A stretch of 64,000 nucleotides of DNA, from positions 257,393 to 321,392 of the forward strand of contig CAVYDL010000001.1 in the NCBI GenBank assembly GCA_963767275.1. The letters are read 5' to 3'. Positions 4,647 to 59,232 of this stretch are shown in pieces. The notes beneath the pieces were generated by a model. That model did not search any database, had not been told where the DNA came from, and saw only the letters and a program-made list of their open reading frames with translations. The DNA is from an uncultured delta proteobacterium. Lineage in GTDB: Bacteria > Desulfobacterota > Binatia > UBA9968. Numbering within the stretch: position 1 is the first letter of the stretch; each line of letters opens with the position of its first letter. Both the position numbers and the translations under genes were made by a program.

Positions 4647-4790
4647 GTTCAAAAGTTCCAGGGTTCAAGGTTCAAGGTCGGAATTCAAGGTCACCGCGCC
4701 CGCCGGTCCGATTGAACCCTTGAACTTTGAACAACGTCGAAACCTAAACGATTGGACATTGGAACGATTGGAACGAGTTCAGGACTTTTG
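4647..4790. repeat. Intergenic array of tandem GTTCAA/TTGAAC hexamers (inverted halves, so potentially hairpin-forming).
   Basis: gttcaaggttcaaggtcggaattcaaggtc ... gaacccttgaactttgaacaacg ... ttggaacgattggaacg. Confidence 0.7.
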
Positions 4791-4791
4791 A

Positions 4792-5283
4792 CTAATTGAG
4801 ATAGCCACTGCCGCCGCCCTCGGCCTCTGCCACCGCTAAGTTGTGGCGCACGGCATCGAGATGTGGATGGATTTCCAACGCCCGGCGAAAGCATGTCGCC
4901 GCCTCGCGAAACTCACTCACCGTCAGATGACAAAGGCCTTGCCCCGCCGCCGCGCCGAAGTGATTGGGATTGCGCGCCAAGGTTTGCTGACAGTCGGCGA
5001 TCGAGCCTTTGAAATTTTTGCGCATATAGCGCACCGTCGCGCGCTTGTTCCAACCCTCGGCGAATGCCGGCAGTCTCTCGATCACGCTGCCGAACAACTC
5101 TTCCGCTTCTTCGAGCCGGCGGTTCTGCATGGCCTCGACGCCGGCGCGAAACAGCCGATCGCACTCAGCATCCGCCGAGCGGCACCAAAAGCCCCAAAGC
5201 ATCGCCTCCGCCGTCGCCGCCAACTCGGCGTCGTCGCCTTTCAAAGCGACCAGCGCTTCTTGTTCGTCGGTCGGGTAGGACAT
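4792..5283 (-). CDS. TPR-repeat protein.
   Basis: Repeated W-x-x-A/Y/F TPR-like helices (EGWNKRATVRYMRKNFKGSIADCQQTLARNPNHFGAAAGQGLCHLTVSEFREAATCFRRALEIHP). The opposite-strand ORF is Arg-rich and looks like an antisense artefact. Confidence 0.55.
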   Translation of the reverse strand: MSYPTDEQEALVALKGDDAELAATAEAMLWGFWCRSADAECDRLFRAGVEAMQNRRLEEAEELFGSVIERLPAFAEGWNKRATVRYMRKNFKGSIADCQQTLARNPNHFGAAAGQGLCHLTVSEFREAATCFRRALEIHPHLDAVRHNLAVAEAEGGGSGYLN

Positions 5284-5287
5284 GGGT

Positions 5288-6025
5288 TCAAGGCTCGATT
5301 TCTGGCGAGGAAGGCAGCAAACCGCGACTCCGCTTCGAACCTTGAAGCGAAATATTTTTGATCATCCATTGCGCCGCCTCCTCGACCGCATCGCTCAAGG
5401 CTTGTTCATCCGACTTGCGCGCGCTCTTGAGCATATGGAACGAATGATCGCCGCCCTGGACGACATGGAGCTCGGCTCCGAGTTGCTTGCACAGCGGCTT
5501 GAGCAGTTTCAAATCGGCCAAGCCGTCCCGCGAGCCCTGCAAAAACAGCATGGGAATATCGATGTTGGACAAATGCACGCCACGATCGGCGCCGGGCTTG
5601 CCCATGGCGTGGAGCGGAAAGCCGAAATAGATCAGCCCGCGCACTTCGGCCAACGGCTCATGGGACGCCGCCAACGAGGTCATGCGTCCGCCCATCGACT
5701 TGCCACCGGCAAATAGCGGCAACCCGTCGGATAATTTTAGCGCGGTCGCCACCGCCGCGCGCACCGTCTCCAACATCACCGCCTCGCTGTCCGGCCGCTT
5801 GATGCGCTTCTCCATGTAAGGGAACTGATAGCGGAAGGTTGCCACGCCGCGCGCAGCCAGCCCGGCTGCGCTGTCGTTCATGAACTTATGCCACATGCCC
5901 GCGCCGGCGCCATGGGCCAGCACCAATAGCGCTTTGGAATCCTCGGGCTTTTGCAACAGGCCGGTAACCACGCCGGCTTTAGCATTGATGATAAATTGTA
6001 TTTCTTTGACGCCTGGATGACTCAT
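5288..6025 (-). CDS. Alpha/beta hydrolase (dienelactone-hydrolase-like).
   Basis: LVLAHGAGAGMWHKFM...GGKSMGGRMTS nucleophile-elbow context and ...DHSFH. Confidence 0.65.
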   Translation of the reverse strand: MSHPGVKEIQFIINAKAGVVTGLLQKPEDSKALLVLAHGAGAGMWHKFMNDSAAGLAARGVATFRYQFPYMEKRIKRPDSEAVMLETVRAAVATALKLSDGLPLFAGGKSMGGRMTSLAASHEPLAEVRGLIYFGFPLHAMGKPGADRGVHLSNIDIPMLFLQGSRDGLADLKLLKPLCKQLGAELHVVQGGDHSFHMLKSARKSDEQALSDAVEEAAQWMIKNISLQGSKRSRGLLPSSPEIEP

Positions 6026-6043
6026 GCTGCTTTCATAGCATAA

Positions 6044-7321
6044 TCAAAACTTGAGCACACCCACTTGGTGCTTTTCTTGGTTCCAGGCGGCGAGCAAATA
6101 CCAGACAATCATCAGCAGCACAACTGCACCGACGGCCCAGGGCCAGCTAAAAAGTTGCGGCAAAAACACCGGCGTGCCCAGCTGACCAATCCACTCCATG
6201 CGTGTGAGCAACAAACGCATCGCCGATGCAGTAAGGGCAAAAAAAACCACGGCAATCCAAAGCTTCACATGCCCCTCGCCGGCGCGCCAGATCGATCCCG
6301 CGCCGCAGCCGCCGGCAAGCACCATGCCGATGCCGAAGATGACACCGCCGGTCAGAGCGCCGAACCAAAATGACGGGAACACCCACTCTGACGCGTCTTT
6401 TAAATCCGTGACTTTTAAAATCGCGAAGCCGATCACACCCATGACCAGCGCCAATGCCGCGCCGCGCGCATGCTCGCTTGCGCCGCTCATGAACGGCTCG
6501 CGAAAGGCGTTCACCAGACAAAAGCGCGAGCGCTGCAAGACGATGCCGAAAGCGCTGCCGAAGAATAAGAAAACTGCTAACCGGCCATGACCCATGAACT
6601 GATACGAATACCCCGCTACGAGCACGAGCATGAGCACCAATCCGCCAATCCCCGGTTGAAGCTTAAACGCCGTCGAGGTAACCGCCGGCCGCGGCGGCGC
6701 CTCGCAAGTTGCCATAAATGGCAATCTGCCGGACTCGATGACCTTGCCGTTCTCGCGGATCAGATAGCGCGTACCGATAAAGGCGCCGACAACTAGCCCC
6801 ATCATCATCGCCAATCCGCTCGCCGACAGCGCCGCTAGCGCGCTGAAAAACCCGCCGATGTTGCAGCCAAACGACAACACCGCACCCGCGCCCATGAGCA
6901 GACCGCCGAGCGCGCCTTTGATTAATTCCCTGCCAGGCGCCGGGCGCATGGCGAACTCACGGCTGAGCAACGCCGCTGCTAGCGCGCCGAGCAGCAAACC
7001 GATGTTCAACACCGAGCCGGAGTACAGTAGCGGCGGCAGCAAGTCCGGCTGATCGATGACGCCAAGCCAGTGGAACATGGAGTCGCCCCAGCTGCGCAAA
7101 CCATCCGACGCGGTCCATGGCTTGTCATAGGCGAAGAGAAAAACATTGAGGGCGGCAATTACCAGCGCCGAGGGCATCACCGGCCAGGGGCGGCCGAAGA
7201 TTTGATTATATTGATCGCGCAATACCGCGGCGAGGCTGCCAGGTTTGCCCGTCATAATGGCGGCAGGGCGCGCGATTCGCCCACAATAACCGGGGATTGA
7301 ATTCTCGACGCCGACAACCAT
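6044..7321 (-). CDS. YeeE/YedE-family sulfur-compound (thiosulfate-type) transporter with duplicated domains; likely start at M23 (7255).
   Basis: Two copies of the YeeE/YedE signature (GCNIGGFFSALAA ... AGGCGAGSIWRAG), highly hydrophobic, about 400 aa. Confidence 0.75.
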   Translation of the reverse strand: MVVGVENSIPGYCGRIARPAAIMTGKPGSLAAVLRDQYNQIFGRPWPVMPSALVIAALNVFLFAYDKPWTASDGLRSWGDSMFHWLGVIDQPDLLPPLLYSGSVLNIGLLLGALAAALLSREFAMRPAPGRELIKGALGGLLMGAGAVLSFGCNIGGFFSALAALSASGLAMMMGLVVGAFIGTRYLIRENGKVIESGRLPFMATCEAPPRPAVTSTAFKLQPGIGGLVLMLVLVAGYSYQFMGHGRLAVFLFFGSAFGIVLQRSRFCLVNAFREPFMSGASEHARGAALALVMGVIGFAILKVTDLKDASEWVFPSFWFGALTGGVIFGIGMVLAGGCGAGSIWRAGEGHVKLWIAVVFFALTASAMRLLLTRMEWIGQLGTPVFLPQLFSWPWAVGAVVLLMIVWYLLAAWNQEKHQVGVLKF

Positions 7322-7324
7322 GAA

Positions 7325-7669
7325 CTAGGAAAAATGCACATCGCTCTGGCCCTGATAAACTTTACCCTCGGTATCCGAAAAACTCACCGTCAGCTTGCCC
7401 GGCTTGTCGACTTTCAACGGAAAGGTAAAACTCGGATTCTGACTGACAGCCTGGGTCAGCTCCGTGCGCATCACTTCCTTGCCGTTGTACGCCACGGTCA
7501 TGGTATGAATAAATAGATAGTTCTTGGGAATAATCTTGTTCGCCTTATCGCGCTGGACGATCTCCATCGGATGGATCACCAGAGTGCGCACGCGAATCAC
7601 GTCGCCCTGCTTGATCGACGACGGCAAGCGAATACTGACTCTGCCTACCTCAGCCATAACTTTTCTCAA
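7325..7669 (-). CDS. soxZ: SoxZ thiosulfate-oxidation carrier subunit.
   Basis: VIRVRTLVIHPMEIVQRD...KIIPKNYLFIHTMTVAYNGKEVMRTELTQAVSQNPSFTFPLKV matches the SoxZ pattern (xHPMExG...IP...NGK.V...AVS.NP.F.F). Confidence 0.75.
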   Translation of the reverse strand: MRKVMAEVGRVSIRLPSSIKQGDVIRVRTLVIHPMEIVQRDKANKIIPKNYLFIHTMTVAYNGKEVMRTELTQAVSQNPSFTFPLKVDKPGKLTVSFSDTEGKVYQGQSDVHFS

Positions 7670-7674
7670 TCATT

Positions 7675-7725
7675 TTCCGAAAACGACTTGGACGTTTTGA
7701 ACGTCTGGAACGATTGGAACGCCGC
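7675..7725. repeat. TTGAAC-type intergenic repeat between soxZ and soxY.
   Basis: gacttggacgttttgaacgtctggaacgattggaacg. Confidence 0.6.
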
Positions 7726-7733
7726 GCCGCGGC

Positions 7734-8273
7734 TCAGCCCTGCGGCGGCAGATCACAGCCGCTGATGGTTACCCGCACATGCTTGCTCACCGCATAAAGC
7801 GTATCATCGCTCATCTCCGCGACCACGCGCACATCGGTGGAGGTCGCCAAACGCACGCTGGTGGCGACCGACGCCCGCCCCGACTCCGGCGTAAATGAGA
7901 ACTTCGCCAACATCGGCCGGCGGTTCTTGTCGGAAATAATATAAATACGCTTCACCTGCACCGCGCCGCTTACCGGCAAACTCGAGTCGATGGCGATCGC
8001 CACGCTACTGCCATCCTCGGCGATCTGCGGTAGTTCGACCTTAAGCTTGTCGTCACCGCTTTGGAATACGCGATTACCGAATAGCCGCTTCAAAGTCGCA
8101 TCGACCAGCTCGTCCGGCTGCGGCATGCCCAACGCGGCAACCTGAGCCTTTATCGTGCTTGGGATCAAAAGTTCTTTGAGCAAACCAGCGCCGCCAAGCA
8201 CGGTGACCAACACCCGTAGAAACCTTCTGCGACTCAGCACCGAAGAGTAAGCTACTGACTCGAATCGGCTCAT
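7734..8273 (-). CDS. soxY: SoxY-like sulfur-carrier protein with a Tat signal; the C-terminus is ...VTISGCDLPPQG, not the canonical GGCGG.
   Basis: MSRFESV...SRRRFLRVL twin-arginine motif. The body aligns to SoxY (VKRIYIISDKNRRPMLAKFSF...VRVTISGC). RBS-spaced ATG at 8271-8273. Confidence 0.7.
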   Translation of the reverse strand: MSRFESVAYSSVLSRRRFLRVLVTVLGGAGLLKELLIPSTIKAQVAALGMPQPDELVDATLKRLFGNRVFQSGDDKLKVELPQIAEDGSSVAIAIDSSLPVSGAVQVKRIYIISDKNRRPMLAKFSFTPESGRASVATSVRLATSTDVRVVAEMSDDTLYAVSKHVRVTISGCDLPPQG

Positions 8274-8414
8274 TATTGATCCGCGCATCGACTGTAATTT
8301 AGTAAATATGACTAAACCAATCAACTAGGTTTGATTTTACTTGACTTAGCCTGGGCGTTTGGTTATTCACGAAAACGACTCAACCAAACCGATCAAACTT
8401 TTGTGGAGATATCC

Positions 8415-10580: not shown

Positions 10581-11762
10581 ATGACTCCGGCAAACTCCGA
10601 CACCCTCTGGACCCGCGCTTTCGTACTGCTTTGCATCGTCCAGTTCTTAGGCTACGCGCAGCACTTCGTGCTGCAACCGACCTTGCCAATCTACGTGACT
10701 CACCTCGGTGCCACCCCATTCGTCGTTGGCTTGGTGATGGCTTCCTTCGCCGCCACCAGCATGATCTTGCGGCCGCTGGTGGGCTATTGGTCCGACCGCT
10801 GGAGCGAAGCCGGTGTGATGATCTCCGGCCTGCTAATCCAAGGCGCCAGCGTGTTGCTTTGCTACCTGCCGTTTGTCACCACCACCATGATCGCCAACAG
10901 CTGCCGCGGCGTCGGCTGGGCCAGCGTCAATTCCGGCGGCTACGCGCTGCTCGCCCAGAGCGCTCCCGCCGCCCGCCGCGGTGAAGCGTCGGGTTACTAC
11001 AGCGGCGCCCAGGGCAGCGCGACGATTCTTTTGCCAGCCTTGGCGCTCTGGTTGATCGATGCGCCCTTCGGCGGCTTTCACGTCGTCTTCGCGGTTTCCA
11101 TGAGTATCGCCGTCACCGGCGCCGCTCTCGGACTGCTCCTGCGCGATCGCGCCGTAAGCAGCGCGCGGCAACAGCGCAACGCCCTCGCCGGTCCCTGGTG
11201 GCGTGAGATCATTAGAATTCCCGACAAAGATATTTTGCTCGCCGCCGGCTTGCTGTTCGCATTGCATGTTTCGCTGCCCGCCGTCGCCGGCTTTCTGGTT
11301 CTCTACGCGCGCCAGTTGGGCATCGAGCATTTCGGCTGGTACTACGTTGCCAGCGGCGCGACGAGTCTAATTGCCCGCCCGCTGCTCGGCCAGCTCTCCG
11401 ACAAGATTGGCCGTGGCGCCGCTATCGGCGCCGGTTTCATTCTTGAAGCCGCGGCATTCTGCGTCGTCGTAAACGCCACCACGCTGGGCGGCATGATCGT
11501 CTCGGGAATGCTTTACATGACCGGCTCGTCAATGGGCACGGCGGCGACGTTGGCGCTCGCCCTGCAGCACGCCAACCCGGAACGGCGCGGCCAAGTGATC
11601 GCGACTTATTCGATGGCCTATCCGCTCAGCGCCGGCGTCGGCTCATTGCTCGCCGGCAGCGCCATCCAAATGGCCGGATACAGCTGGATGTTTATTTTCA
11701 TCGCCCTGCTCAATATCCCCGGCCTGTGGATCACCTGGAAAAACCGCGCGAGCTTGCAATGA
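10581..11762 (+). CDS. MFS transporter, paralog 1 of 5.
   Basis: About 390 aa, 12 predicted TM segments. N-terminus LWTRAFVLLCIVQFLGYAQHFVLQPTLPIYVTHLGATPFVVGL and the RRGEASGYYSGAQ motif are shared by all five paralogs. Confidence 0.8.
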   Translation: MTPANSDTLWTRAFVLLCIVQFLGYAQHFVLQPTLPIYVTHLGATPFVVGLVMASFAATSMILRPLVGYWSDRWSEAGVMISGLLIQGASVLLCYLPFVTTTMIANSCRGVGWASVNSGGYALLAQSAPAARRGEASGYYSGAQGSATILLPALALWLIDAPFGGFHVVFAVSMSIAVTGAALGLLLRDRAVSSARQQRNALAGPWWREIIRIPDKDILLAAGLLFALHVSLPAVAGFLVLYARQLGIEHFGWYYVASGATSLIARPLLGQLSDKIGRGAAIGAGFILEAAAFCVVVNATTLGGMIVSGMLYMTGSSMGTAATLALALQHANPERRGQVIATYSMAYPLSAGVGSLLAGSAIQMAGYSWMFIFIALLNIPGLWITWKNRASLQ

Positions 11763-11789
11763 CAATGATGAAGAAACGTTTTCACCACG

Positions 11790-11870
11790 AACGGCACCGA
11801 GTTCACGAAGGCAAGCGATATCCTATCAACGCCTATACGCACTTTCCCGGACTTCGTGTCCTTCGTTGTG
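11790..11870. repeat. CACGAAG/CTTCGTG hairpin element between MFS1 and MFS2.
   Basis: gttcacgaaggcaagcg ... cttcgtgtccttcgttgtgaac (inverted repeat). Confidence 0.55.
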
Positions 11871-21200: not shown

Positions 21201-22659
21201 ATGACCGAAGTTTATTTTCAAGACACCACCATCCGCGACGGCGCGCAAAGCCTGTGGGCATACAATATCCGCACCGGGATGATGGCGCCGATCTGCGCCC
21301 AACTCGACGAGGCCGGCTTCGAAGCCATCGAACTCGGCGGTCCCATCGAAATGCCCAAGTGCGTCAAAGAACTGCGCGAAGATCCCTGGGAGCGCTACCG
21401 TCTGATTATTCCCAAATTCAAACGCACGCCGTTGCGCTTGGTGCATGGCTCACGCAGCGGCTTTGCCATTTATCCGGACGCCTTGCATCAACTCTTCGAT
21501 ACCTGCATGGCCAACGTCGGCGTCAGCGAAGTGCGCATCTCGGATTCATGGAACGATGCCGCGGATTGGGCCTGGCGCGTCAAACAGGCCAAGCACGCCG
21601 GCTTGAAACCGATTATCAATTTGATCTACACCGTGTCGCCGCGCCACACCGACGAATATTACGCCGCGAAAATTCACGAAGCCAAAGCCCTCGACGTCTA
21701 CCGGATCATATTCAAGGACCCCGGCGGGATCTTGACGCCGGAGCGCACCAGGACCGCGGTGCCGGCGATCCTCAAAGCCGCCGGCGATATGACGGTGGAG
21801 CTGCACACCCACTGCACCACCGGCCTCGGCACGCTGTGCTGCCTGGAGGCGATCAAAGCCGGCATGGTGCATATCAACACGGCGATTCCGCCGCTCGCCG
21901 ATGGCTCGGGAAATCCTTCCCTGTTCAATGTCGCCATGAACGCGCGCGCTCTGGGTTATAAAACCATGATCGACGAAGCGCCGCTGCGCGAAGCTTCCAA
22001 GTTTCTCACCGCCTGCGCCAGACAAGACAATCTGCCCATCGGCAAAACGCCCGAATACGACTACGCGCAGTACGTCCATCAAATCCCCGGCGGCATGATT
22101 TCCAACCTGCGCCATCAATTGAGCCGCGTCGGCATGGACGACAAGATCGCTCAGACTTTAGAGGAAGCCGCCCAGGTGCGCGCCGATTTCGGTTATCCGA
22201 TCATGGTCACGCCGCTGTCGCAGTTCGTCGGCAGCCAAGCCGCCATCAATGTAATTGTCGGCGAGCGTTACAAACAGGTCACCGATCAGACCATCGAATA
22301 CGCCATGGGCATCTGGGGCAAGGAAGGCGCCGCAGTTCATGGACCAGAACGTCAAAGAAAAAATACTCAATCGCCCGCGCGCCAAAGAGATCGCCGGCCG
22401 CCCCCACCCCACCGACACCCTTGAGGAGCTGCGCAAAAAGTATGGCGGCAAGGACGACGAAGAACTCTTGTTGCGATTTTTTTCCAGCAAAGAGGACGTC
22501 GACCGCATGTATGCCGCCGGCCCGGCGCGGACCTATTCCAGCGGCAGTAATCCGCTGGTCAATCTCGTCGGCGAGTTGTCGAAACAAAAAGACCGCTCTA
22601 GCGTGTTCATTCAACGCCCCGGCTTAACCTTGCGCATGCAACGGCGCAGCGCAGCCTGA
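21201..22659 (+). CDS. Carboxyltransferase-domain protein (pyruvate carboxylase subunit B / oxaloacetate decarboxylase alpha / transcarboxylase 5S-like, no biotinyl domain); apparent frameshift near 22320-22340.
   Basis: FQDTTIRDGAQSL (HMGL-like) ... VELHTHCTTGLGTLCCLEAIKAGMVHINTAI (PYC_OADA), then the frame shifts to ...KEKILNRPRAKEIAGRPHPTD... Confidence 0.7.
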
Positions 22660-22680: not shown

Positions 22681-22766
22681 GAACGACCGGAACCCAAGCC
22701 GACGTCTTGAACGATTTGAACGGAGCAAAGCGGTTGAACGGCTTGAACGCGTTTTGCAATTCGAGG
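22681..22766. repeat. TTGAAC tandem hexamer repeat.
   Basis: cttgaacgatttgaacggagcaaagcggttgaacggcttgaacgcg. Confidence 0.65.
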
Positions 22767-22771: not shown

Positions 22772-23301
22772 ATGGCACGCGTATCGTTAATCGGCGAAGC
22801 CGATCATCCCGAGCTCGCCGACAGTCTATCGCCAAAATCAAAGGCGCCCGCGGCGGGCGGCTGATCAACGTCTATCGCTTGATGCTGCATAGTCCGACGC
22901 TGGCCAATGCCTGGTTCGAATTCAATCAAGCCGTGCGCTACGGCACCGAGATCGACGGCCAGTGCCGCGAGATCGCGGTCATTCGCGTGGCGCTATTGAA
23001 CAATGTCGAGTACGTCCAACGCGCCCATGGACCGGCCTACGCACTGAAAGAAGGCTTGACGCCCGAGCAGGTCACCGCCATTGCCGACTGGCAACCGTCG
23101 AAGCTATTCAACGACAAGCAGCGCGCCCTGCTTGCCTACACCGACGCCATGACGCGCGAAATCGAGGTACCGGACAGCCTGTTCGCCGAAGTGCGCCAAC
23201 ACTTCAACGAACGCCAAACCGTCGAACTGACCATGCTCATCGGTACCTACAACATGTTCACAAGAGTTTTACAGGCACTGAGAATCGACCCGGAACCCTG
23301 A
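22772..23301 (+). CDS. Carboxymuconolactone decarboxylase (AhpD-like) family protein; apparent 1-nt deletion near 22822.
   Basis: MARVSLIGEADHPELAD, then after a frame change SIAKIKGARGGRLINVYRLMLHSPTLANAWFEF...REIAVIRVALLNNVEYVQRAH (CMD family). RBS gaggt upstream of the ATG at 22772. Confidence 0.65.
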
Positions 23302-23304
23302 GCA

Positions 23305-23390
23305 TTCGTTCAAGGTTCAAAAGTTCAACGTTCAAGGCCAGAAACAGGAATTCAACGTTGAACTTTTGAACCGTTGAACTGTTGAACGAA
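23305..23390. repeat. GTTCAA/TTGAAC repeat, an imperfect long palindrome.
   Basis: cgttcaaggttcaaaagttcaacgttcaagg ... gaattcaacgttgaacttttgaaccgttgaactgttgaacg. Confidence 0.7.
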
Positions 23391-23394
23391 ATTT

Positions 23395-24473
23395 ATGATT
23401 AAATTCGTCGTCGAAAACGACACCTTCCTGCGCTTGATTCAAGTCGTCCTCGATCCGTCGGCATCCGCAGAACGAATGGAAGCCTTCGCGCACTTTTGCT
23501 TGCACGATTTGCCGGATTTCCGCGGCTGGTGCGACAAAATCCGCGCCCAGGCGGAAAATCTTTTTCCCGCCGATGTTCGCCTGGTCGACAGCCAGGACGA
23601 GTTATTGACGCATTTGCCCAACGCCACGGTCGCCGTCGTTGAAGAGCTTTCTTTCGGAGCGCAAGAAGTTGCCGCGCGCGGGCAAGAACCTCCGATTCGT
23701 TCAGAAGTACGGCTTCACGACGCGCAACATCGACCAAGCCGCTTGTGACCGCGCCGGTGCAAAGGTGTTAACCATCCGCCGCCGGGCAAACATCTCGACC
23801 GCGGAACAAGGCTTGATGCTCATGCTCGCGCTGGCGCGCCAAGTGACGCAGAACGCCAATCTGATTAGCAACGAACAACTCAGCAATGCCGGCTACCAGC
23901 CGACGACCTACAATCGCCGGCACACGCCCAACGGCAACTGGGCGCGCATCCCCGGCATGGTTACGCTTTATCACGCGCCAACTCGGCATCGTCGGTCTCG
24001 GCGAGATCGGCAGGGAACTGGCTTTGCGCGCCATCGCCCTCGGCATGCGCATCGTCTATCATCAGCGCACGCGCTTGCCCGCAGCAGTCGAAGAGCAATA
24101 TCAGGCGACGTACGTGAGCCTAGACGAACTGCTTGCCGGCTCGGACTTCATCAGCCTGCACTTGCCGCGCAGTCCGGCGACCGTCAACTTCATCGGTGCA
24201 GATGAGTTATCGGTCGTCAAGCCCGGCGCATTCCTAATCAACGTCTCGCAACCGAACTTGGTCGAACGCCACGCACTGCAACGCGCCCTGGAATCGCGCC
24301 GTCTCGCCGGATTCGGTCTCGACACGTTCTACGAAGAACCGGGCGACGCCAACGACCCGCTGATCCAATTCCCCAACGTCATCGTCACCCCCCACATGGG
24401 CGGGTCACCGCGCTGGAACTCGCTCGACGACATCGAGGAAGTGATCGTCAACCTCGGCCGCTTGCTCGCCTGA
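23395..24473 (+). CDS. D-isomer-specific 2-hydroxyacid dehydrogenase (NAD-binding); two apparent frameshifts (near 23650-23700 and 23940-23960).
   Basis: Three collinear frames. The last carries GIVGLGEIGRELALRA (Rossmann) ... FISLHLPRSPATVNFIG ... NVIVTPHMGG. Confidence 0.65.
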
Positions 24474-24479
24474 GAGTGT

Positions 24480-24620
24480 GTGAAAATCCATTCATGCTTC
24501 GAACCTTTGACATTGCTCAGGACAGCACGAACGGCAAATTTGTCAATGTTATCAATGCAATTTCCGTTCGCCCTGAGCTTAGTCGAAGGGCGAGTCAGAT
24601 TGTTTTACACACTCTGAGTG
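24480..24620. repeat. MITE/REP-like palindromic element of about 130 bp.
   Basis: Terminal inverted repeat gagtgtgtgaaaa ... ttttacacactc; internal arms gctcaggacagcacgaacggcaaatt / aatttccgttcgccctgagc; shares ccgttcg(c/t)cctgagc..gtcgaagg and cagattgt cores with 40500-40565 and 42785-42860. Confidence 0.6.
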
Positions 24621-24630
24621 AATTGCGAAG

Positions 24631-27836: not shown

Positions 27837-27978
27837 CTATGCCTTTCAGCGGGCGACCAGCCGGTCGCCCTCTACAAATCCGAATTTTATCTTTGCGCCC
27901 TTTGCGTTCTTTGCGGCTAAGTCTTCCGGGTCCGAATTTTGTGACTTTTGTGCTCTTTGTGGTTAAATCATCCGACTC

Positions 27979-29079: not shown

Positions 29080-29168
29080 TCCATTTTGGATTTTTGATTT
29101 TCAATTTCCGGACGGGCGAAACATGTTTCGCCCCTACTAATATCTGTTGCCTAATGCCTATTGCCTGC

Positions 29169-29979: not shown

Positions 29980-30040
29980 CGTTCAACGCTACGAACCGCG
30001 AGCGACCTTAACTTTGACCTTTGAACCTTGAACGGGCAAA
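29980..30040. repeat. TTGAAC-type repeat.
   Basis: cgttcaacgctacgaaccgcgagcgaccttaactttgacctttgaaccttgaacg. Confidence 0.6.
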
Positions 30041-33424: not shown

Positions 33425-33495
33425 ACACGAAAGGTTCGGATGACCAAATCTTTGAACTTCGTGCTTTTCGTGCCCTTCGTGGGAAAAAACTATTT
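33425..33495. repeat. CACGAAG/CTTCGTG repeat element.
   Basis: aaggacacgaaaggttcgg ... cttcgtgcttttcgtgcccttcgtggg. Confidence 0.5.
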
Positions 33496-34428: not shown

Positions 34429-34439
34429 GGGTTACCTCT

Positions 34440-34545
34440 CCTTCGCAGAAAGGTTTCTCGCTGCGCTCGAAATGACAAGACGTTAGTGGATGTCATCCGT
34501 GCATTGACTGTCATCTCGAACGATGTGAGAGATCTCTCCGAGTTT
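34440..34545. repeat. MITE/REP-like palindromic element (same family as 38935-39060).
   Basis: ggtttctcgctgcgctcgaaatgacaagac...tgtcatctcgaacgatgtgagagatctc versus gatttctcgccttgctcgaaatgacagac...tgtcatcccgaacgaagtgagggatctc at 38960. Confidence 0.65.
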
Positions 34546-34548
34546 CAT

Positions 34549-35679: not shown

Positions 35680-35712
35680 GCCTTGAACCTTGAATGTTTG
35701 AACCTTGAACCG
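35680..35712. repeat. TTGAAC-type repeat.
   Basis: ccttgaaccttgaatgtttgaaccttgaacc. Confidence 0.6.
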
Positions 35713-35734: not shown

Positions 35735-36746
35735 TTAATTCGGCAACCAGCACACCGCCGCGATCTCGCTCAGCTCTCTGCGCAGCTTCGTCCACGACGC
35801 GCCGCTGTCATCGCTGCGGTAGAGATAACCGTAGCGGCTCGCGGCAAACATAACCTTTGGGTCGTCGGAATTGGTCGCGAACGTCCACATCGTCGAGTTG
35901 GGTTCCTGGGGCAGCGGCAAGAGCTTCCAGCTCTTACAGAAATCATCGCTTTGCGCGATTGCGCCTGAGGTTCCCGGCGTGAAGTCGCCGAAGCTCACCA
36001 TGATTTTTTTCGGATTGGCTGGGTCGACGGCAATGCCGCGCAGATAGTTTTCTTTGCGCGGATACTCCCACGGCAAACACTTCTGCATGTCGCGCGGCTC
36101 CCAGCTCTTGCCATTATCCGTGCTCGCATATATCTCCCGGTTGGCCATGATGAATGCCGTCTTGGGCGGGCCGGCGGTGACCGCAACGTTGTGAATATCG
36201 CGCCGCCCGGTCACCTCGACGATATTCCAGGTGTCGCCGCCGTCGCTGCTGTGACGGGCGCCGTCCACTTCGAGACCCGCCCAGATATGATTGGGCTCGA
36301 CAGGATCGACGGCGATGCCGGTGAACCTCGGCGTGCCCACCGCCTCACATTCCGTCGCCACTTCCACCGGCCGCTTGTCGAAGCTGCGGCCGCCATCCTT
36401 CGAACGAAAGAGCATCGCCGGCAGTCGGCGTGCCGGTGCCGACAAAAATGTTATCCGGATTCACCGGATCGATGCCGATCGCCCAGACATAGTGCGGATT
36501 GAGCGCCGAGTCGAGGTACTGCCAATTGGCGCCGCCGTCGGCGCTGCGATAAAGCCCGCGCTCGGTACCGGCAAAGAGAATATTGTGCTGCTTCGGATTC
36601 ATCGCGATGCAGCGCACCGAAGCCTCGTAAGCAAATCCCCGCCGCGGCCCGATGCGCGCCCAAGTCTGGCCATTGTCTTCGCTGCGCATGATGCTTTGTC
36701 CGATAGTTCCGACAACGATAGTTACGTCTCGCATATTTCCTCCCAA
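35735..36746 (-). CDS. BNR/Asp-box repeat protein (Ycf48-like/sialidase-like beta-propeller); apparent frameshift near 36350-36440.
   Basis: Seven S-x-D-x-G-x-T/S-W boxes (SEDNGQTW, SADGGANW, SKDGGRSF, SSDGGDTW, STDNGKSW, SDDFCKSW, SDDSGASW) spread across two frames. Confidence 0.65.
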
Positions 36747-36775
36747 GACGACTTGAACGTTTTGAACTAAGTCTT

Positions 36776-38863: not shown

Positions 38864-38934
38864 GGATTCCTTCTATCCATTGCTCTCATATCACCACCCA
38901 TGTTTAATCAACAACAGAGCGCATCGTTGCGCTG

Positions 38935-39060
38935 CACGATGGTGGTTCAGATTGATTGTGGCGATCGAGAAAGATTTCTCGCCTTGCTCGAAATGACAGA
39001 CAAAAAGCGAGTGTCATCCCGAACGAAGTGAGGGATCTCGACCGAAAGCAACCACAATCA
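38935..39060. repeat. MITE/REP-like palindromic element.
   Basis: ggttcagattgattgtggcgatcgagaaagatttctcgccttgctcgaaatgacagacaaaaagcgagtgtcatcccgaacgaagtgagggatctc; the two arms are about 25 bp of imperfect inverted repeat. Confidence 0.65.
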
Positions 39061-39141
39061 CGGTAATGCGACATTGACAGCAGCGCGCGTTCTCATCTAA
39101 AAGGAATCCCAACAACCGGCGGACAATTGAAGGAGAACCAT

Positions 39142-40501: not shown

Positions 40502-40565
40502 ACAGAAAGAGATCGAATGCAAATCTTTTTCCGTTCGTCCTGAGCCCGTCGAAGGCCTCTGAGAT
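40500..40565. repeat. MITE/REP-like element fragment.
   Basis: ttccgttcgtcctgagcccgtcgaaggcctctgagattgtgttcagcg, compare 24555-24600. Confidence 0.55.
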
Positions 40566-42729: not shown

Positions 42730-42784
42730 ATAGCGCACAACAAATAAGGGCGGGTTTGAAACCCGCCCCTACGAATTCGATTAT

Positions 42785-42860
42785 GTGCCGTTGACTTTCT
42801 AACGCCCGATCGCCCTGAGACTCGTCGAAGGGTGCGGCCAACCGATCCGAAATTTCGGCC
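42785..42860. repeat. MITE/REP-like element fragment.
   Basis: cgcccgatcgccctgagactcgtcgaagggtgcggcc. Confidence 0.5.
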
Positions 42861-44333: not shown

Positions 44334-44540
44334 GATCGTCCCTCCTGTTTATTTGCAAGACATGCCAGCGCTATCACCGCAGAAATAGCCTGTCAACGTA
44401 GTCGGCAAGGGCGTTCCAACCGTTCCAGCCGTTCAAACCTTTCCAATCGTCTTCGGAAACGCAAACGGGATAGTTGCGACTCTGACGCGCGAGTGTCCTG
44501 GTTTCGCCTAAATTTGTTGTAACCTCCTGTTTCCGACACG

Positions 44541-44588
44541 GCTTGAACGGAGCGCAGGGGTTGAACGGCTTGAACGATTTGAACGCCT
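44541..44588. repeat. TTGAAC tandem hexamer repeat.
   Basis: ggcttgaacggagcgcaggggttgaacggcttgaacgatttgaacgcc. Confidence 0.65.
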
Positions 44589-44605
44589 GTAGCGCGCGAT
44601 GCGCG

Positions 44606-45553
44606 CTAGATGACCATCGTCGTGCCAACACTGTTCGGCGTGAACGCCTCGGGAAACTCGCGCGCGATCAGATGCGTCGCCTTCCAGCCGGTGCAATGCT
44701 GCGGCACGATGACGCCGGGATTGAATTCTTTCAGCGCCTGCACCGTCGGTTGAACGATCGGCTCGAAGATCGGTCCGGTCAAGTGAAACCCGCCGATGAC
44801 CGCGTGAATTTGCTTCACTCCGGTCATGTCGCGCGCGCATTTCAACGTGTTGACCACCCCGGCGTGGCCGCAGCCGGTAAGCACGACGAGTCCCTTATTC
44901 TTCACATTGATAACGATCGCTTGATCGTCGTGAATCCACGGATCGGGCTGCCACTTGCCATCGATCAGCGCGACTTGGTTGGGGCTGCCTTTCTCGAAGG
45001 TTGTCGTCCGCGGGATCTGCCCGGTGACAAGCGCGTTGCCGCCGATCAACATGGTCGGCCCGCGTTCCTCGACGATCTGAATATCCTCGCCTTCGAGATC
45101 CTTTTTGCTCGGCGGAATATGCTCCGACTCGTGGCCGTCGCCCTGAATATTTTTTCTTTTCAGATAGGCGTCGGGATGGAGAACGATCGGCACTTGGGGC
45201 CGGCCATAGCGCTTGATGAATCCAAGCAAACCGCGCGTGTGGTCGGTGTGGCCATGGCTCAAGACGACGGCGTGAAGCTCGTTGCCCTTGATGTCGAGCA
45301 CGTCCATGTTGTGCAGCACGCCGTCGACGGTCACGCCGGTATCGAAGAGAAACGAATCTTTTTGGCCGGCGGAGTAAGTCGTCACCAGCATCGACACGCC
45401 GTGCTCGGCGCGCAACTGCGGCCGCGCATGGGCGTTGCTGCCGCGCTGGTGGCGCTTGGCCACCGGCGTGTTGCCCATCAGCACGTCGATGGAATTATCC
45501 ATCACGCTCAAGATTTCGACGCGGTCGACTTCATTCAGCGGCAAGGTCACCAT
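44606..45553 (-). CDS. MBL-fold metallo-hydrolase (COG1237-like).
   Basis: MVTLPLNEVDRVEILSVMDNSIDVLMG...VVLSHGHTDHTRGL. Confidence 0.75.
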   Translation of the reverse strand: MVTLPLNEVDRVEILSVMDNSIDVLMGNTPVAKRHQRGSNAHARPQLRAEHGVSMLVTTYSAGQKDSFLFDTGVTVDGVLHNMDVLDIKGNELHAVVLSHGHTDHTRGLLGFIKRYGRPQVPIVLHPDAYLKRKNIQGDGHESEHIPPSKKDLEGEDIQIVEERGPTMLIGGNALVTGQIPRTTTFEKGSPNQVALIDGKWQPDPWIHDDQAIVINVKNKGLVVLTGCGHAGVVNTLKCARDMTGVKQIHAVIGGFHLTGPIFEPIVQPTVQALKEFNPGVIVPQHCTGWKATHLIAREFPEAFTPNSVGTTMVI

Positions 45554-50630: not shown

Positions 50631-50665
50631 GAAGCCACGAAGGACACGAAGGGTTCAGATTGAAA
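50631..50665. repeat. CACGAAG repeat unit.
   Basis: gaagccacgaaggacacgaagggttcagattg. Confidence 0.5.
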
Positions 50666-54325: not shown

Positions 54326-54422
54326 GATTGGGCTCCGCGCGTAGAGTCGGAGTGATGGAGTATTGGAGTGCCGGGTTTCAATTGCATCACTCCATCATGC
54401 CAAAACCCCGCGCTTCTGCGTT

Positions 54423-55478: not shown

Positions 55479-55500
55479 GGCAATTCTCCTCTGTGCCTAA

Positions 55501-55572
55501 CTGGAACGGTTAGAACACGTGGAACTCTTCGATCTTCCGACCTTGAACTTTGAACCTTGAACCTTTGAACGA
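55501..55572. repeat. TTGAAC tandem hexamer repeat.
   Basis: ccttgaactttgaaccttgaacctttgaacg. Confidence 0.7.
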
Positions 55573-55575
55573 TCT

Positions 55576-56538
55576 TTAGAGATCCATCTTCTTCCCCAGC
55601 CCGCGCTGCACCGCTTCATCATAAAGCCACGCCGCCAACGCCATGTCACCGTAGCCGCCCTGGGACTCGCGAAAAATGTTAATTTCGTCGCGGCTGGCGC
55701 GCCCGACCGCCTGACCGGTGACCAATTCGCCGAGCTCGGGCACCCGGCTCCAAGAAAGCTTGCCTTCGGCAGCGAGCTCGACCAATGGCAGCGCCGCCGA
55801 TTTATCGGCGTAGTTGCGCTCCTGCTCTTGGCTGCCGACCACGGTGCGCGCGGCTTTCAAATGCAGATCGCGGCTCAACTCCGTCGGCTTACCCATGCTG
55901 CTGACATGGGTGCCCGGCTCGACCCAATCTTCGGGAAAGATCGGCGTCAGCGAATTGGTCGCGGTGAGAATAACGTCCATGCCGCGCACTGCTTGCTCCG
56001 GCCGGTCGACACCGCGCACCGTGATGCCGAGTAACTGTTCGCCCTCGGCGCAAAATTTCTTGCGCCGCTCGGGGTCGCGGCTCGACACATAGATCTCATT
56101 AATCGGCCGCACGGTTTGCAGCGCCTTGAGAATGCCGAAGGCATTACGGCCGACGCCAAACAAGCCGAGCTTCTTGGAGTCTTGCCGCGCCATATGCTTG
56201 GCCGCGATGGCAACCACGGCCGCGGTACGAAGTGTGCCGAAGGGAAATCCCATGAACGCCAACAGCTCGCCGCTATCGGCATCGAACAAGGTTGCGTACA
56301 TTTTATCGCCGCCGCCGAGTCCGCTGTTGGGCCCCATTCGAACGCCGACTCGATGCTGTTTGAGCACCGCGCCGGACACGATGCGCAATCCTTTGCTCGG
56401 CCCGACGGTCACATGATACGGCGCATGGGGCACAATCTGGCCATTGACCTGTTGCCGGTGGGCATCCTCGATCAACTCGATGGCCTGAGTAAGGCCGAGC
56501 AGCGGTTTCAATTCATCGCGACTTAGAAATAAAGCCAT
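55576..56538 (-). CDS. Ornithine cyclodeaminase/mu-crystallin-family protein, paralog 1.
   Basis: LGLFGVGRNAFGILKAL (Rossmann) ... about 320 aa, OCD_Mu_crystall architecture. Confidence 0.75.
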   Translation of the reverse strand: MALFLSRDELKPLLGLTQAIELIEDAHRQQVNGQIVPHAPYHVTVGPSKGLRIVSGAVLKQHRVGVRMGPNSGLGGGDKMYATLFDADSGELLAFMGFPFGTLRTAAVVAIAAKHMARQDSKKLGLFGVGRNAFGILKALQTVRPINEIYVSSRDPERRKKFCAEGEQLLGITVRGVDRPEQAVRGMDVILTATNSLTPIFPEDWVEPGTHVSSMGKPTELSRDLHLKAARTVVGSQEQERNYADKSAALPLVELAAEGKLSWSRVPELGELVTGQAVGRASRDEINIFRESQGGYGDMALAAWLYDEAVQRGLGKKMDL

Positions 56539-56579
56539 CGTAACTCCGATTTTGCAGCAGACTATCTCGAGCAGGTCCG

Positions 56580-56613
56580 ACGTTGAACTTTTGAACCTTG
56601 AACCTTTGAACGG
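56580..56613. repeat. TTGAAC repeat.
   Basis: cgttgaacttttgaaccttgaacctttgaacgg. Confidence 0.7.
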
Positions 56614-56616
56614 CAG

Positions 56617-57835
56617 TTATTTCTGCGTAACCGCCAGTTCATGCGCCCGCTTGCCTAACCGTCGCCCACCGTTCTTGGTCACGACCACGGTATCGCCCCA
56701 CTGGCAGATATATTCGCCGTCCGCCGAAATCGCCGACGGCTTGCAGATAAAAACCATGTTCTCGCGCATCGCCACCGCGAGCTGGCGCGGGCTCTTGGCG
56801 TGGGGCGTAATGATCGGTCCGTCGTCCCCCTGGCCGCGGCCATGCATGTTGAGGACGCCTTGGGCGCCCGCCGCCGGGCCCCTTTTCGGCGCGGCACTTT
56901 GCACCGCACTCCTAGTCAACTCGGCGAGCTCGCCGACGGTGACGCCGGGCTTCAGATTTTCCACCACGCGATTGAACACTTCGCGCTGTACTTTGATCAA
57001 CTCGGCCTGCACCGGATCGATCACTTCGACAAACACCGGCTGCACGCCCTGGGCCCGGTACCCGATCCACGACGCTTCGATCTCATTGATGATCGCGTCG
57101 CCGCGCTCGAGCAGCCGCATGCTCGGCCGGGTCAAGGTGCGCTTGGGATTTTTTCCGGACACCCAGAAACAGTGCACCGGCAACTCGGAACCGTTGCGCG
57201 TCATGGCGTAATGCATCGCCGCCCAGACTTCCCAATCCTTGACGCCGACTTTGGCCGCTTCGATTTCCGCTTGAATCGCCAGTTCGTTGATTTCCATTGA
57301 CTTGGTGAGCACGCCGATTTCTTCGTCGCTTTTCACATAACGCACTTCGTCGAGGATTGCCGTGGCGTCGACCAATTGCGCCTGCGGGAAGCCTTCGCGG
57401 ATCTGCTTCCAGGTGCCGTAGAAAATCGTTCCTTCCGGCGTGCGCGTGCCTTCGACCTCGCCCAGACCGGTTATGCCGATACGGCCGCGATCGATCGCCC
57501 AATTCTTTCAACCGCTCGACAATGACCTTGCCATAATTACGCCGCGCCTCGCGCACGTCGGTGACCCAGTCCTGCACCGTCGGCCAACGCGGCGCCGGCG
57601 AAGTCGCGATCGCCGTCACTTCGCCGTCAATCGGAAAAACCGCCGCGAGATCGGGTTCGCCGCCGCCGCAATGCGTCAGGTAGCGCGTGTTGGCTTGATA
57701 GTCCGCCGAATGGCCGCTGTTCTGCGGCGTGACGATGACGTCAAGATTCTGCTGGCGCATCAGCTCACGGACAGCTTGCCAACGCCGGTCCCGTTCAGCG
57801 AGTGAAAAACGCGGATAGGGATAAAGTTCTGCCAT
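56617..57835 (-). CDS. M24-family metallopeptidase (creatinase/prolidase/ectoine-hydrolase-like), paralog 1; apparent frameshift near 57480-57520.
   Basis: The N-domain frame 57083-57835 and the catalytic frame 56617-57375 align collinearly with the intact paralog at 57962-59140. Confidence 0.65.
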
Positions 57836-57869
57836 GAATTATGTTCTGAGGGTCAATGAAATATTTTTC

Positions 57870-57950
57870 TCACCACGAAGGCACGAAGAGCACAAAGTTC
57901 GGAGGTTATTTATCCGAACCCTTCGTGCCTTCGTTGGTGAACAATCCTCT
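57870..57950. repeat. CACGAAG/CTTCGTG hairpin element.
   Basis: caccacgaaggcacgaagagcacaaagttcgg ... ccgaacccttcgtgccttcgttggtgaa. Confidence 0.6.
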
Positions 57951-57961
57951 TTTTTTTGCGG

Positions 57962-59140
57962 TCAAACATCGATTACAACCAATTTCATATCGCGCTTGCC
58001 CAAACGGCGCGCGCCGTTTGCGGTCACCGTCACGGTATCACCGACGCTGGCGCGGCCTTTGCCCTGGGTCGGCCGTACTTGTGGTTTGAGTATGAAAGTC
58101 ATGCCGGCCTTAAGCTCAATCTTGGCAAATCGCTCGAGATCCTTGTCACCCATCAGCGCCGGCCCATCGTCACCGAGCCCGCGCGCGTGCATCATCGGAT
58201 GGCTCCAAGAATATGGCCCGGCGCCTTCCACCGTGCGCGTGTAGGTATCGAACAACGTGCCGAAAGTCACGCCTGGTTTCATGGCAGCGAGAATCGCATC
58301 GAAACAGGCATGCGAGACTTCGACCATCGCTTGATAAGCCGGATCGGGTTTACCGACCACCGCCGGACTCACCGCCTGCGCCGCATAACCGCCATATTTG
58401 GCTTCGATCTCACCGACAAGATTGTCGCCGTTTTGAATCACGTAATCGGTGGGCACAAAAGAGCTATTGAACAGATTGGGGCCGGCGCTGAGAAAAAATA
58501 AGGTCGGCAACTCGCCGCCGTTGGATAACATGGCATGAAGCATGGTCGCATAGACTTCTTTTTCGCTCACGCCCGGCTTGGCGGTTTGCTTCATCGCATC
58601 AATGGCTTTCTCGATAATCGCCGCAGAGCGCTCTAGAAAAGACACTTCCTCTGAGCTCTTGATGGCACGAATCTCCTGCATCATCTCGGTGGCGTTGACC
58701 AGCTTGGCATGGGGAAACGCCTCTTGAATCGCCTTGACCGACGTATAAGGAATGATCCCCTCCGGCGCGCGCACCAAACCGGCAAGCCCGGAAACTCCGA
58801 TGGTGCCTTTGTCGAGGCCCAATTCTTTGATGCGCTCGATGGCGTTTTGACTCCAGCGGTTGCGCCCGTCACGCACGTCCGCCACCCAATTCTGCGCCTT
58901 CTGCCACCAGCCGGCGCGATTGAAAACATATGCAGTAACGTCGCCCTGGGCGGGGAAAACGGTAAACATCTCGGTGGCGAAACCGCCGATGTTGGTCAGA
59001 TAGCGCGAGTCGCCTTGCAGCTGCTCCCAGCGCCCCGTGTTCGCCGGCAGCAGCAACACATCGATGCCGCGCTGGGCCATCTCCGCGCGCACCAGTTGGT
59101 AACGCCGATCTCTTTCTTGAATCGATAACTGTGGAATCAT
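57962..59140 (-). CDS. M24-family metallopeptidase (creatinase N-domain plus pita-bread catalytic domain), intact.
   Basis: 392 aa; ...HARGLGDDGP... metal-ligand region and creatinase-like N-domain. Confidence 0.75.
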   Translation of the reverse strand: MIPQLSIQERDRRYQLVRAEMAQRGIDVLLLPANTGRWEQLQGDSRYLTNIGGFATEMFTVFPAQGDVTAYVFNRAGWWQKAQNWVADVRDGRNRWSQNAIERIKELGLDKGTIGVSGLAGLVRAPEGIIPYTSVKAIQEAFPHAKLVNATEMMQEIRAIKSSEEVSFLERSAAIIEKAIDAMKQTAKPGVSEKEVYATMLHAMLSNGGELPTLFFLSAGPNLFNSSFVPTDYVIQNGDNLVGEIEAKYGGYAAQAVSPAVVGKPDPAYQAMVEVSHACFDAILAAMKPGVTFGTLFDTYTRTVEGAGPYSWSHPMMHARGLGDDGPALMGDKDLERFAKIELKAGMTFILKPQVRPTQGKGRASVGDTVTVTANGARRLGKRDMKLVVIDV

Positions 59141-59185
59141 CGTTTCCTCACTTGTTCGGAATCTCAGATTTAAAATGTTCAGTCA

Positions 59186-59232
59186 CGACTTGAACGAAGC
59201 GCAGCGGTTGAACGGCTTGAACGTTTTGAACG
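59186..59232. repeat. TTGAAC tandem hexamer repeat.
   Basis: cgacttgaacgaagcgcagcggttgaacggcttgaacgttttgaacgcg. Confidence 0.7.

Follow-up and report, generated by a model that had tools for sequence, protein, structure and literature searches.

Strand-oriented short tandem GTTCAA repeats in intercistronic spacers and 3' untranslated regions of a Binatia genome

A 64,000-nucleotide stretch of the genome of an uncultured soil delta proteobacterium (Binatia, UBA9968; GenBank assembly GCA_963767275.1, contig CAVYDL010000001.1, positions 257,393 to 321,392), referred to below as the window, carries a dispersed, strand-oriented family of short tandem repeats that occupies intercistronic spacers and 3' untranslated regions. 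Both this description and the composition of the unit are well supported; each unit combines a conserved hexamer, GTTCAA (or GTTCCA as a variant; TTGAAC on the opposite strand), with one to three variable bases and is usually present in three to four copies. Judged from their position in the sequence, the arrays are most likely co-transcribed with the flanking genes, and they may act as intercistronic elements at the RNA level, in translational coupling, processing or stability, a reading that is put forward tentatively.

To establish whether the arrays exceed chance, TTGAAC was counted on both strands of the window, giving 79 copies against 31.5 +/- 5.1 expected from dinucleotide-preserving shuffles; the count was reached in 0/100 shuffles. 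A preliminary description of this DNA had named 12 tandem TTGAAC/GTTCAA loci with a period of 7-9 nucleotides (nt) and had held that a chance-level frequency would speak against the family. All 12 were present when read individually, with two to five tandem units per locus; most were also picked up independently by Tandem Repeats Finder. Some 46 of the 79 copies fall in these 12 loci and the remainder are at chance level, therefore the hexamer excess derives entirely from the arrays. When every hexamer was assessed in the window for at least three exact copies with gaps of 1-3 nt, TTGAAC/GTTCAA yielded seven exact arrays. Four other loci held one array each, with the cores CACGAA, CTTTGC, TTTGTG and ATTGGA (the last being a TTGGAAC variant), and shuffled sequence gave 0.08 arrays, all hexamers summed. 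The same elements are present in short-read assemblies of other projects, and thus the arrays are not assembly artefacts.

The location of the arrays was assessed against a gene map of Pfam-supported, long open reading frames (ORFs) with a high G+C content at third codon positions (GC3). Credible coding sequence makes up 82% of the window and contains none of the arrays, so the equal presence in coding regions that had been named as a second ground for doubt was not seen. Every array sits in a spacer between co-directional genes; convergent neighbours, which had also been proposed, do not occur in the window. The distances from stop codon to array are 5, 5, 5, 6, 8, 8, 13, 17, 21 and 23 nt; one further array lies 47 nt away. 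Frameshift-split genes were corrected by hand when stop and start codons were placed. These are a carboxylase gene (21201-22659), a CMD-family gene (22772-23301), a BNR repeat protein gene (35735-36730) and an M24 peptidase gene (56617-57835), in which the frameshifts displace the apparent stop and start codons adjoining the arrays; they are probably indel errors of long-read assembly, pseudogenes being the alternative.

To investigate whether the arrays persist in relatives, eight contigs with OCD orthologues (83-95% amino-acid identity) and the synteny M24 peptidase - OCD - SBP - permease were compared. The closest homologues of one window protein, at up to 95% identity, carry the source label Candidatus Binatia. 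In seven of the eight genomes both the M24-OCD and the OCD-SBP spacers open with GTTCAA/GTTCCA arrays 4-10 nt past the stop codon. The arrays differ from genome to genome in copy number, in period and in A/C variants, and some have an inverted partner where others have none. Identity at four-fold degenerate sites of OCD is 0.40-0.73 between related genomes, against 0.31 by chance; synonymous sites are thus near saturation, and unconstrained hexamers would not have survived. Unit statistics were drawn from 20 Binatia arrays comprising 75 units. The exact hexamer GTTCAA accounts for 64/75 units and GTTCCA for 5/75, the period is 9 nt in 24 cases, 8 nt in 16 and 7 nt in 15, and identical neighbouring spacers were found in 0/35 cases. 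A conserved core with varying spacers is not the signature of recent slippage and indicates that the core, and nothing else, is constrained or continually renewed. Nearly all stop-proximal arrays in Binatia are in the GUUCAA sense, 4-23 nt past the stop; a single array has the opposite, start-proximal sense.

The family is not genome-specific; the same arrays occur in many phyla. A scan for three units, using one genome per GTDB species, returned at least 120 loci; carriers among the matches listed include Binatia, 'delta proteobacterium' metagenome-assembled genomes (MAGs), Acidobacteriota, Desulfobacterota, Bacteroidota, Verrucomicrobiota, Cyanobacteria and others. Among these matches from other genomes 115/151 arrays are intergenic, and within 25 nt of a gene 3' end 35 are in the GUUCAA sense and 10 in the UUGAAC sense, several of the latter being artefacts, since TGA lies within TTGAAC and units repeated every 7 or 8 nt close all three frames. 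Inverted pairs among the matches listed place the GTTCAA arm first in 24 cases and the TTGAAC arm first in two, where a pure requirement for a hairpin would give equal numbers. A metagenome scan for the 9-nt type returned at least 120 independent loci, mostly from soil samples. In the 120 metagenome loci listed, a long high-GC3 ORF ends no more than 25 nt upstream on the GUUCAA-sense strand of 42 arrays and on the other strand of two. These scans measure spread and not enrichment of GTTCAA over other cores outside Binatia; control scans of viral contigs with TTGAAC and two composition-matched hexamers each gave at least 120 matches, mostly 9-nt coding repeats, and are uninformative about relative abundance. 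No syntenic matches of window proteins were found in random genome loci. In other phyla, long perfect arrays of 10-20 units occur among the matches listed.

The arrays of the window, with the strand on which GTTCAA reads, are as follows.

4647-4675, plus strand: GTTCAA units forming the distal arm of an inverted pair, then GGTCGGA; spacer from a TPR gene to an FMN-reductase gene, minus-strand genes.
4712-4732, minus strand: three units, GUUCAA in the mRNA sense; stop-proximal arm pairing with 4647-4675.
4747-4776, minus strand: degenerate GTTCCAA units at a 9-nt period, 17 nt past the stop codon at 4792-4794.
7688-7720, minus strand: single array of four units, GTTCCAA, GTTCCA, GTTCAA and GTCCAA in the mRNA sense; SoxY to SoxZ spacer, 13 nt past the stop.
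22681-22748, minus strand: UUGAAC when read in the direction of the plus-strand genes on either side; includes a GGAGCAAAGCGG module and stops 23 nt short of the CMD-family ATG.
23308-23335, plus strand: 5' arm of four units, 6 nt past the stop of the CMD-family gene.
23358-23387, minus strand: 3' arm of four units, ending 7 nt before the next ATG, which lacks a Shine-Dalgarno sequence.
30012-30033, minus strand: three units, one degenerate, 8 nt past the stop of a TctC-family gene; a lone opposite unit lies at 29981-29986.
35683-35710, minus strand: four units, one degenerate, 23 nt past the stop and immediately after a G+C-rich hairpin.
36753-36767, minus strand: two units, 8 nt past the stop of an aldo/keto reductase gene.
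44413-44450, plus strand: degenerate units of the GTTCCA/GTTCAA kind with a period of 9 nt; distal arm of an inverted pair whose arms lie far apart.
44543-44584, minus strand: stop-proximal arm with a CCCCTGCGCTCC module, 21 nt past the stop of a metallo-beta-lactamase gene; pairs with 44413-44450.
55502-55570, minus strand: four perfect units 5 nt past the OCD stop (55543) and, downstream, degenerate GTTCCA, GTTCTA and GTTCCA; RNA unstructured.
56583-56611, minus strand: four units, 5 nt past the stop of the M24 peptidase gene; RNA unstructured; kept at the orthologous spacer of six other contigs.
59190-59231, minus strand: composite of GTTCAAaacGTTCAAgccGTTCAA, CCGCTGCGCTTC and GTTCAA, 5 nt past the SBP gene stop (locus 59208 among the stop distances).

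The array at 22707-22748, 47 nt from the stop, is the only partnerless array of the window in start-proximal orientation. Two sub-types of unit can be distinguished, one of 7-8 nt, composed of GTTCAA and one or two purines, and one of 9 nt, GTTCAANNC. The latter often carries a 12-nt module, GTTCAA-YCGCTGCGCTCC-GTTCAA, with copies in the window at 22716, 44543 and 59190; 26 copies were found in unrelated contexts in Binatia and soil-metagenome loci, at a constant place within the array. GGTCGGA terminates many arrays, as read from the window and related contigs, and a small G+C-rich hairpin precedes the arrays at 44584 and 35710. On the TTGAAC strand three units at a 7- or 8-nt period bring UUG start codons as well as stops in every frame, while the GTTCAA strand has neither start nor stop codons; spurious ORF ends and starts arise at TTGAAC arrays, for example an 85-aa ORF at 44374-44631. 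The 9-nt unit GTTCAANNC also fits the tRNA T-loop consensus G53-T-T-C-R-A-N-N-C61 (59208-59231 and 44561-44584 in the window; 10968-11000 in the related contig L127). Only units that follow an 'aaC' spacer can make a 4-bp stem with a 7-nt loop, as in a fold of 59122-59240. The resemblance may be coincidence, and mimicry of a T arm is only remotely possible.

Inverted pairs are present in three or four of the 11 window spacers. In the three with both orientations the GTTCAA arm always comes first; the single unit is itself non-palindromic. Loci with both orientations had been described as long imperfect palindromes, and they do fold as inverted pairs, but orientation is not free and follows the sense of the upstream gene. 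The region 23299-23412 folds at -43.6 kcal/mol (z = -6.85), the spacers between the units of one arm being complementary to those of the other, and 4640-4740, containing the inverted pair 4647-4732, folds at -33.2 kcal/mol (z = -1.74). The sequences at 44410-44450 and 44541-44588, previously counted as separate loci, proved to be the two arms of one element (44413-44584, z = -3.54). Single arrays are no more structured than shuffles (z = -0.14 to +1.76).

A subset of the pairs bridges the whole distance from stop to start codon, with folds of -26 to -46 kcal/mol (z = -4.7 to -9.4). At window positions 23308-23387 and in six loci of other genomes (L031, L042, L075, L062, L090 and L106) the paired form occupies the entire spacer, starting -1 to 6 nt after the stop and ending 0-9 nt before the ATG, too close for a Shine-Dalgarno sequence to fit in; L037, the seventh such element from another genome, begins at the stop without a nearby ATG. 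Without the element these spacers would measure 1-15 nt, typical of coupled genes. Three of the bridged gene pairs, all from Acidobacteriota, were identified by Pfam as YbaB-RecR, ribosomal proteins L13-S9 and RpoA-L17. The bridging elements thus lie inside essential operons that need read-through, and are therefore not terminators.

Several known element types were compared with the arrays and rejected. The promoter and terminator scans of the window placed no sigma-70-like and no terminator-like site on any array, and the stems are A+U-rich and not followed by the U tract of an intrinsic (rho-independent) terminator. A CRISPR array has repeats of 24-48 nt and unique spacers of similar length, against 6-nt units with gaps of 1-3 nt here; scans and unit structure alike bear out the view, taken from the outset, that the arrays are neither terminators nor CRISPR. 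Rfam 15 gave no match at gathering threshold in the whole window, a permissive Rfam search with the paired element gave only far-sub-threshold matches to microRNA (miRNA)-like hairpins, and no tRNA or tRNA-like genes were found in the window. Inverted arms are a feature of miniature inverted-repeat transposable elements (MITEs), but the flanks of seven paired elements carry no target-site duplication. An RNA with GGA repeats titrating CsrA/RsmA does not fit, as the sense strand reads GUUCAA/GUUCCA and GGA is confined to the complement of the GTTCCA variant. By-eye comparison with the consensus sequences likewise showed no fit of the unit to the motifs of CsrA, Hfq (ARN)n, Rho (YC-rich) or IHF. 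A promoter of the extracytoplasmic function (ECF) type in the 9-nt arrays (GAAC-N17-CG) would point in the antisense direction relative to its neighbouring genes. G-tracts, from which a G-quadruplex could form, are missing from the unit GTTCAA(N1-3), and uniform units of the slippage type are not seen in Binatia, given the mixed 7/8/9-nt period and the absence of identical neighbouring spacers.

The three roles suggested in the preliminary description, an intercistronic mRNA element, a selfish miniature repeat and an iterated binding array, can be weighed against these observations. The first, still a tentative reading, is the best supported of the three, by polarity, stop anchoring, conserved operons and orthologous spacers. 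An array of GUUCAA units starting 0-10 nt past the stop would lie approximately where the mRNA enters the terminating ribosome. With an inverted UUGAAC array downstream, a two-arm hairpin of up to ~35 paired bases (25 contiguous in the best example of the window) could form, the base of which would juxtapose the stop codon and the next start codon, frequently one without a Shine-Dalgarno sequence. Translation of the downstream cistron would in that case depend on an upstream ribosome melting the stem, which would amount to obligate translational coupling. Long perfect duplexes are plausible RNase III substrates, and the stems could also have a part in processing or stability. Most arrays of the window are single; these are structure-free and A+U-rich and may keep the spacer open or offer a platform to a factor that binds single-stranded RNA. 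A bolder form of the proposal, that GUUCAA arrays are a cross-phylum cis-acting signal read by the translation machinery at termination, the paired form coupling reinitiation to termination over 70-100 nt, ribosomal-protein operons included, and the single form being read by a conserved single-strand RNA-binding factor, is speculative and improbable as it stands. As the 9-nt unit, GUUCAANNC in RNA, equals the tRNA T-loop consensus GUUCRANNC, recognition by T-loop-binding enzymes is a further possibility.

A number of observations weigh against an RNA-level role. Most window arrays are single and unable to form a hairpin, and the genes downstream of them have their own Shine-Dalgarno sequences 44-67 nt away, therefore coupling cannot hold as a general explanation. 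Among the matches listed across phyla, single arrays between co-directional genes show no overall orientation bias (27 vs 22), with a median distance from the stop of 17 nt in the GUUCAA sense and 73.5 nt in the UUGAAC sense. At two orthologous spacers one of the eight related genomes (L129) has no arrays and shows no apparent effect of their absence; it retains a degenerate start-proximal arm at a third. Other families of 7-9 nt repeats occupy the same spacers, which points to a general repeat-generating process and not a dedicated signal. Polarity with respect to transcription and to replication is, moreover, not separable within one genome.

The same coexistence of unrelated families, and the spacers without arrays in L129, would suit neutral or selfish repeats. 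These would arise and spread as DNA, through slippage, inverted duplication or some copying mechanism of the REP/REPIN or MITE kind, would be functionless and would be tolerated only past stop codons, in an orientation that does the mRNA no harm. In many bacteria the commonest long repeats are heptamer simple-sequence repeats (Mrazek 2007, as cited in PMC4679880), the perfect arrays of 10-20 units in other phyla are typical of slippage, the module GTTCAA-YCGCTGCGCTCC-GTTCAA recurs in its 26 unrelated contexts in the manner of a dispersed repeat, and other repeats have inserted within arrays (L122). Against this, the arrays persist at orthologous spacers across near-saturated synonymous divergence, the Binatia units combine a conserved core with neighbouring spacers that are never identical, the opposite of fresh slippage, a tight 5-nt offset from the stop is repeated at unrelated loci and the paired elements have no visible target-site duplication; a neutral or selfish origin is somewhat less likely than a role in the RNA but is a serious rival to it. 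Binding of single-stranded GUUCAA RNA by a widely conserved multimeric or multidomain protein that controls processing, decay or re-initiation, for which S1, a cold-shock protein and RNase E are candidates, would account for the constant core, the 1-3 nt spacer variation, the modal copy number of three to four and the unstructured RNA, and the same core is found across phyla that share such proteins. The R-G|UUC junction also resembles the RN|WUU at which RNase E prefers to cleave. The same candidate proteins have been proposed for TAACTGA repeats (PMC4679880). This explanation is nevertheless improbable, since each of the coexisting repeat cores would require a binder of its own, the paired form hides the hexamers in duplex and the single arrays across phyla are unbiased in orientation.

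The iterated binding array was originally conceived for a genome-specific protein, a qualification weakened by the spread of the family, and a rigid binder of double-stranded DNA is unlikely given periods of 7, 8 and 9 nt within single arrays, which put the sites out of helical phase. Roles in double-stranded DNA more generally, as operator- or iteron-like sites, ECF-type promoters or replication-oriented polar sequences, find some encouragement in the single window arrays, all of which show TTGAAC on the plus strand, where the GC skew is negative, and in the 9-nt arrays, which put GAAC 17 nt before CG. As promoters, however, they would be antisense to the flanking genes at 6/7 single loci, in loci retrieved in the opposite orientation the arrays go with the genes, and the polarity relative to ORF ends is 42 vs 2 in the metagenome loci listed; such roles are very unlikely. 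Least probable of all are transcription terminators or attenuators. The paired forms are strong hairpins, and in Xanthomonas G4-forming repeats coincide with transcript starts or stops more frequently than control repeats do (PMC4692102), but here there is neither a U tract nor a terminator-like match on any array, single arrays are unstructured, and elements lie within ribosomal-protein and ABC-transporter operons whose downstream genes need expression.

Among known repeats, the family belongs to the heptamer-type intergenic repeats, which include short tandemly repeated repetitive (STRR) sequences and long simple-sequence repeats, some copies being paired in a REP-like manner. Its head-to-tail units are dispersed (12 loci in 64 kb) and enriched between genes. 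STRR sequences, attributed to Mazel and colleagues in 1990, are reportedly uniform intergenic heptamers of heterocystous cyanobacteria, of unknown function, and we know of no report of stop-codon anchoring or of a polarity rule for them. The likeness lies in dispersed intergenic tandem heptamers, and three cyanobacterial loci (L027, L056 and L065) hold heptamers of the GTTCAA type. The repetitive extragenic palindromic (REP) elements and related BIME and REPIN families of enterobacteria and pseudomonads are also situated in 3' untranslated or intercistronic regions, often as inverted-pair hairpins, and are kept at orthologous sites in different species; they can stabilize the upstream mRNA (malE-malF) and affect translation when within ~15 nt of the stop codon. 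REPs are, however, single imperfect palindromes with a GTAG head, tied to the RAYT transposase, and not tandem hexamer arrays; no GTAG head was seen in the array sequences, and no RAYT in the DNA analysed here.

The closest description is that of the Xanthomonas GGGAATC and Nostoc GGGGA(C/T)T repeats, tandem heptamers of mostly four units that are dispersed over ~180 loci in each genome (Rehm et al. 2015, PMC4692102). GGGAATC-type repeats are under-represented in coding sequence, preferentially situated between co-directional ORFs, and lie either on the sense strand <=50 bp from the stop or on the antisense strand upstream of ORFs; some form inverted pairs, most copies are transcribed and their properties have been ascribed to G-quadruplex formation (PMC4692102). 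The same paper also cites heptanucleotides of Calothrix (PMC4692102). The GTTCAA arrays obey the same positional rule, on the sense strand, <=50 bp from the stop and between co-directional ORFs, typically with four units. They differ in an A+T-rich core that forms no G-quadruplex, in a 7/8/9-nt period that varies within an array, in a core common to many phyla and in the 12-nt module present in many copies. TAACTGA repeats of marine Beggiatoaceae, Cyanobacteria and Bacteroidetes consist of 2-6 oriented heptamers per locus and are abundant in intergenic DNA, and a post-transcriptional role has been proposed for them with S1, Csp or CsrA as candidate binders (MacGregor 2015, PMC4679880). These are situated directly upstream of start codons, overlapping the ribosome-binding region, with only one inverted repeat known (PMC4679880). 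Both families are scattered over distant phyla and TAACTGA, like UUGAAC arrays, has stop codons in all three frames, but TAACTGA precedes starts while GTTCAA follows stops. Geobacter metallireducens has four or five tandem heptanucleotides (GGACCGG; MTYCTGA) at dozens of loci, considered putative regulatory elements (Aklujkar et al. 2009, PMC2700814); the cores are different, GGACCGG also occurs inside genes and a positional rule is not reported (PMC2700814). In the literature searched, tandem GTTCAA strings in a bacterial context had no match.

Further repeats occupy spacers of the window and of the related contigs, and the Binatia genomes examined here hold many different repeat cores of 7-9 nt. 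The SBP to permease spacer (54326-54422) contains inverted arrays of an 8-nt unit, GGAGTRAT, in three copies, followed by copies of the ATCACTCC type, and forms a hairpin that is kept at the orthologous spacer (L122 2827-2931, L124 12087-12183 and L127 12105-12193). Units of 8 nt, CACGAAGG and CCTTCGTG, occur in tandem or inverted in intergenic DNA at 57862-57946, 11786-11867, 33456-33481 and 50636-50652, the first copy being an inverted pair in the same operon as TTGAAC arrays; the count of these motifs is not above chance and only their clustering is unusual. Further short tandem families, CTTTGCGYY, TTTTGTGNY, ATTTTGG and TGCCTAW, each in three copies, occur in spacers (27891-27961 and 29083-29166 in the window), and in L124 (5015-5083 and 7179-7352) AGGCAAT and ATTCCAT arrays begin directly past stop codons. 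Unrelated to the TTGAAC family is a dispersed repeat of ~80 nt with CTCGAAATGACA and an inverted partner (GTCATC...GAGATCTC) at 34429-34548 and 38864-39126, similar copies of which are found in L122 (1368-1770) and L125 (8300-8722). A dispersed spacer motif, CCTGAGC-NN-GTCGAAGG, is present at 24474-24630, 40539-40555 and 42739-42860 of the window and at 1368-1770 of L122, where a copy is inserted inside the orthologous GTTCAA array; repeat families therefore nest in one another.

Larger composite structures were seen in other genomes. In a Desulfobacterales MAG (L054, 1076-1679) a GTTCAA array lies within inverted arms of 110 nt that also hold GTTTTCN heptamer arrays, and in an Acidobacteriota MAG (L120, 2317-2779) a unit of ~100 nt with (GTTCAAA)x3-4 is present in four tandem copies. 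Composite elements made of a GTTCAA arm, a G+C-rich hairpin (CCTCCCCCGCG-loop-CGCGGGGGAGG) and a TTGAAC arm holding GGAGCGCAGCGG occur in L123 (9812-10000), L124 (9825-10000), L127 (9817-10000), L492, L528, L532 and L539; the window has no copy of the hairpin module.

Intergenic repeats of the heptamer type have been on record since 1990, and the functions suggested for them are putative. What the present family adds is a polarity rule independent of quadruplexes, a core shared across phyla, persistence at orthologous spacers and an architecture that bridges stop and start codons. The rule spans at least five phyla and survives near-saturating synonymous divergence at orthologous spacers, and, as it is obeyed by a unit that cannot form a quadruplex, the quadruplex explanation is not general. 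The three-frame stops and the spurious ORFs at arrays affect the annotation of soil MAGs. The positional rule itself points to a tie with the termination of translation or with the cistron's 3' end, and the L13-S9 and RpoA-L17 hairpins in Acidobacteriota suggest translational coupling across long spacers, a model that is testable.

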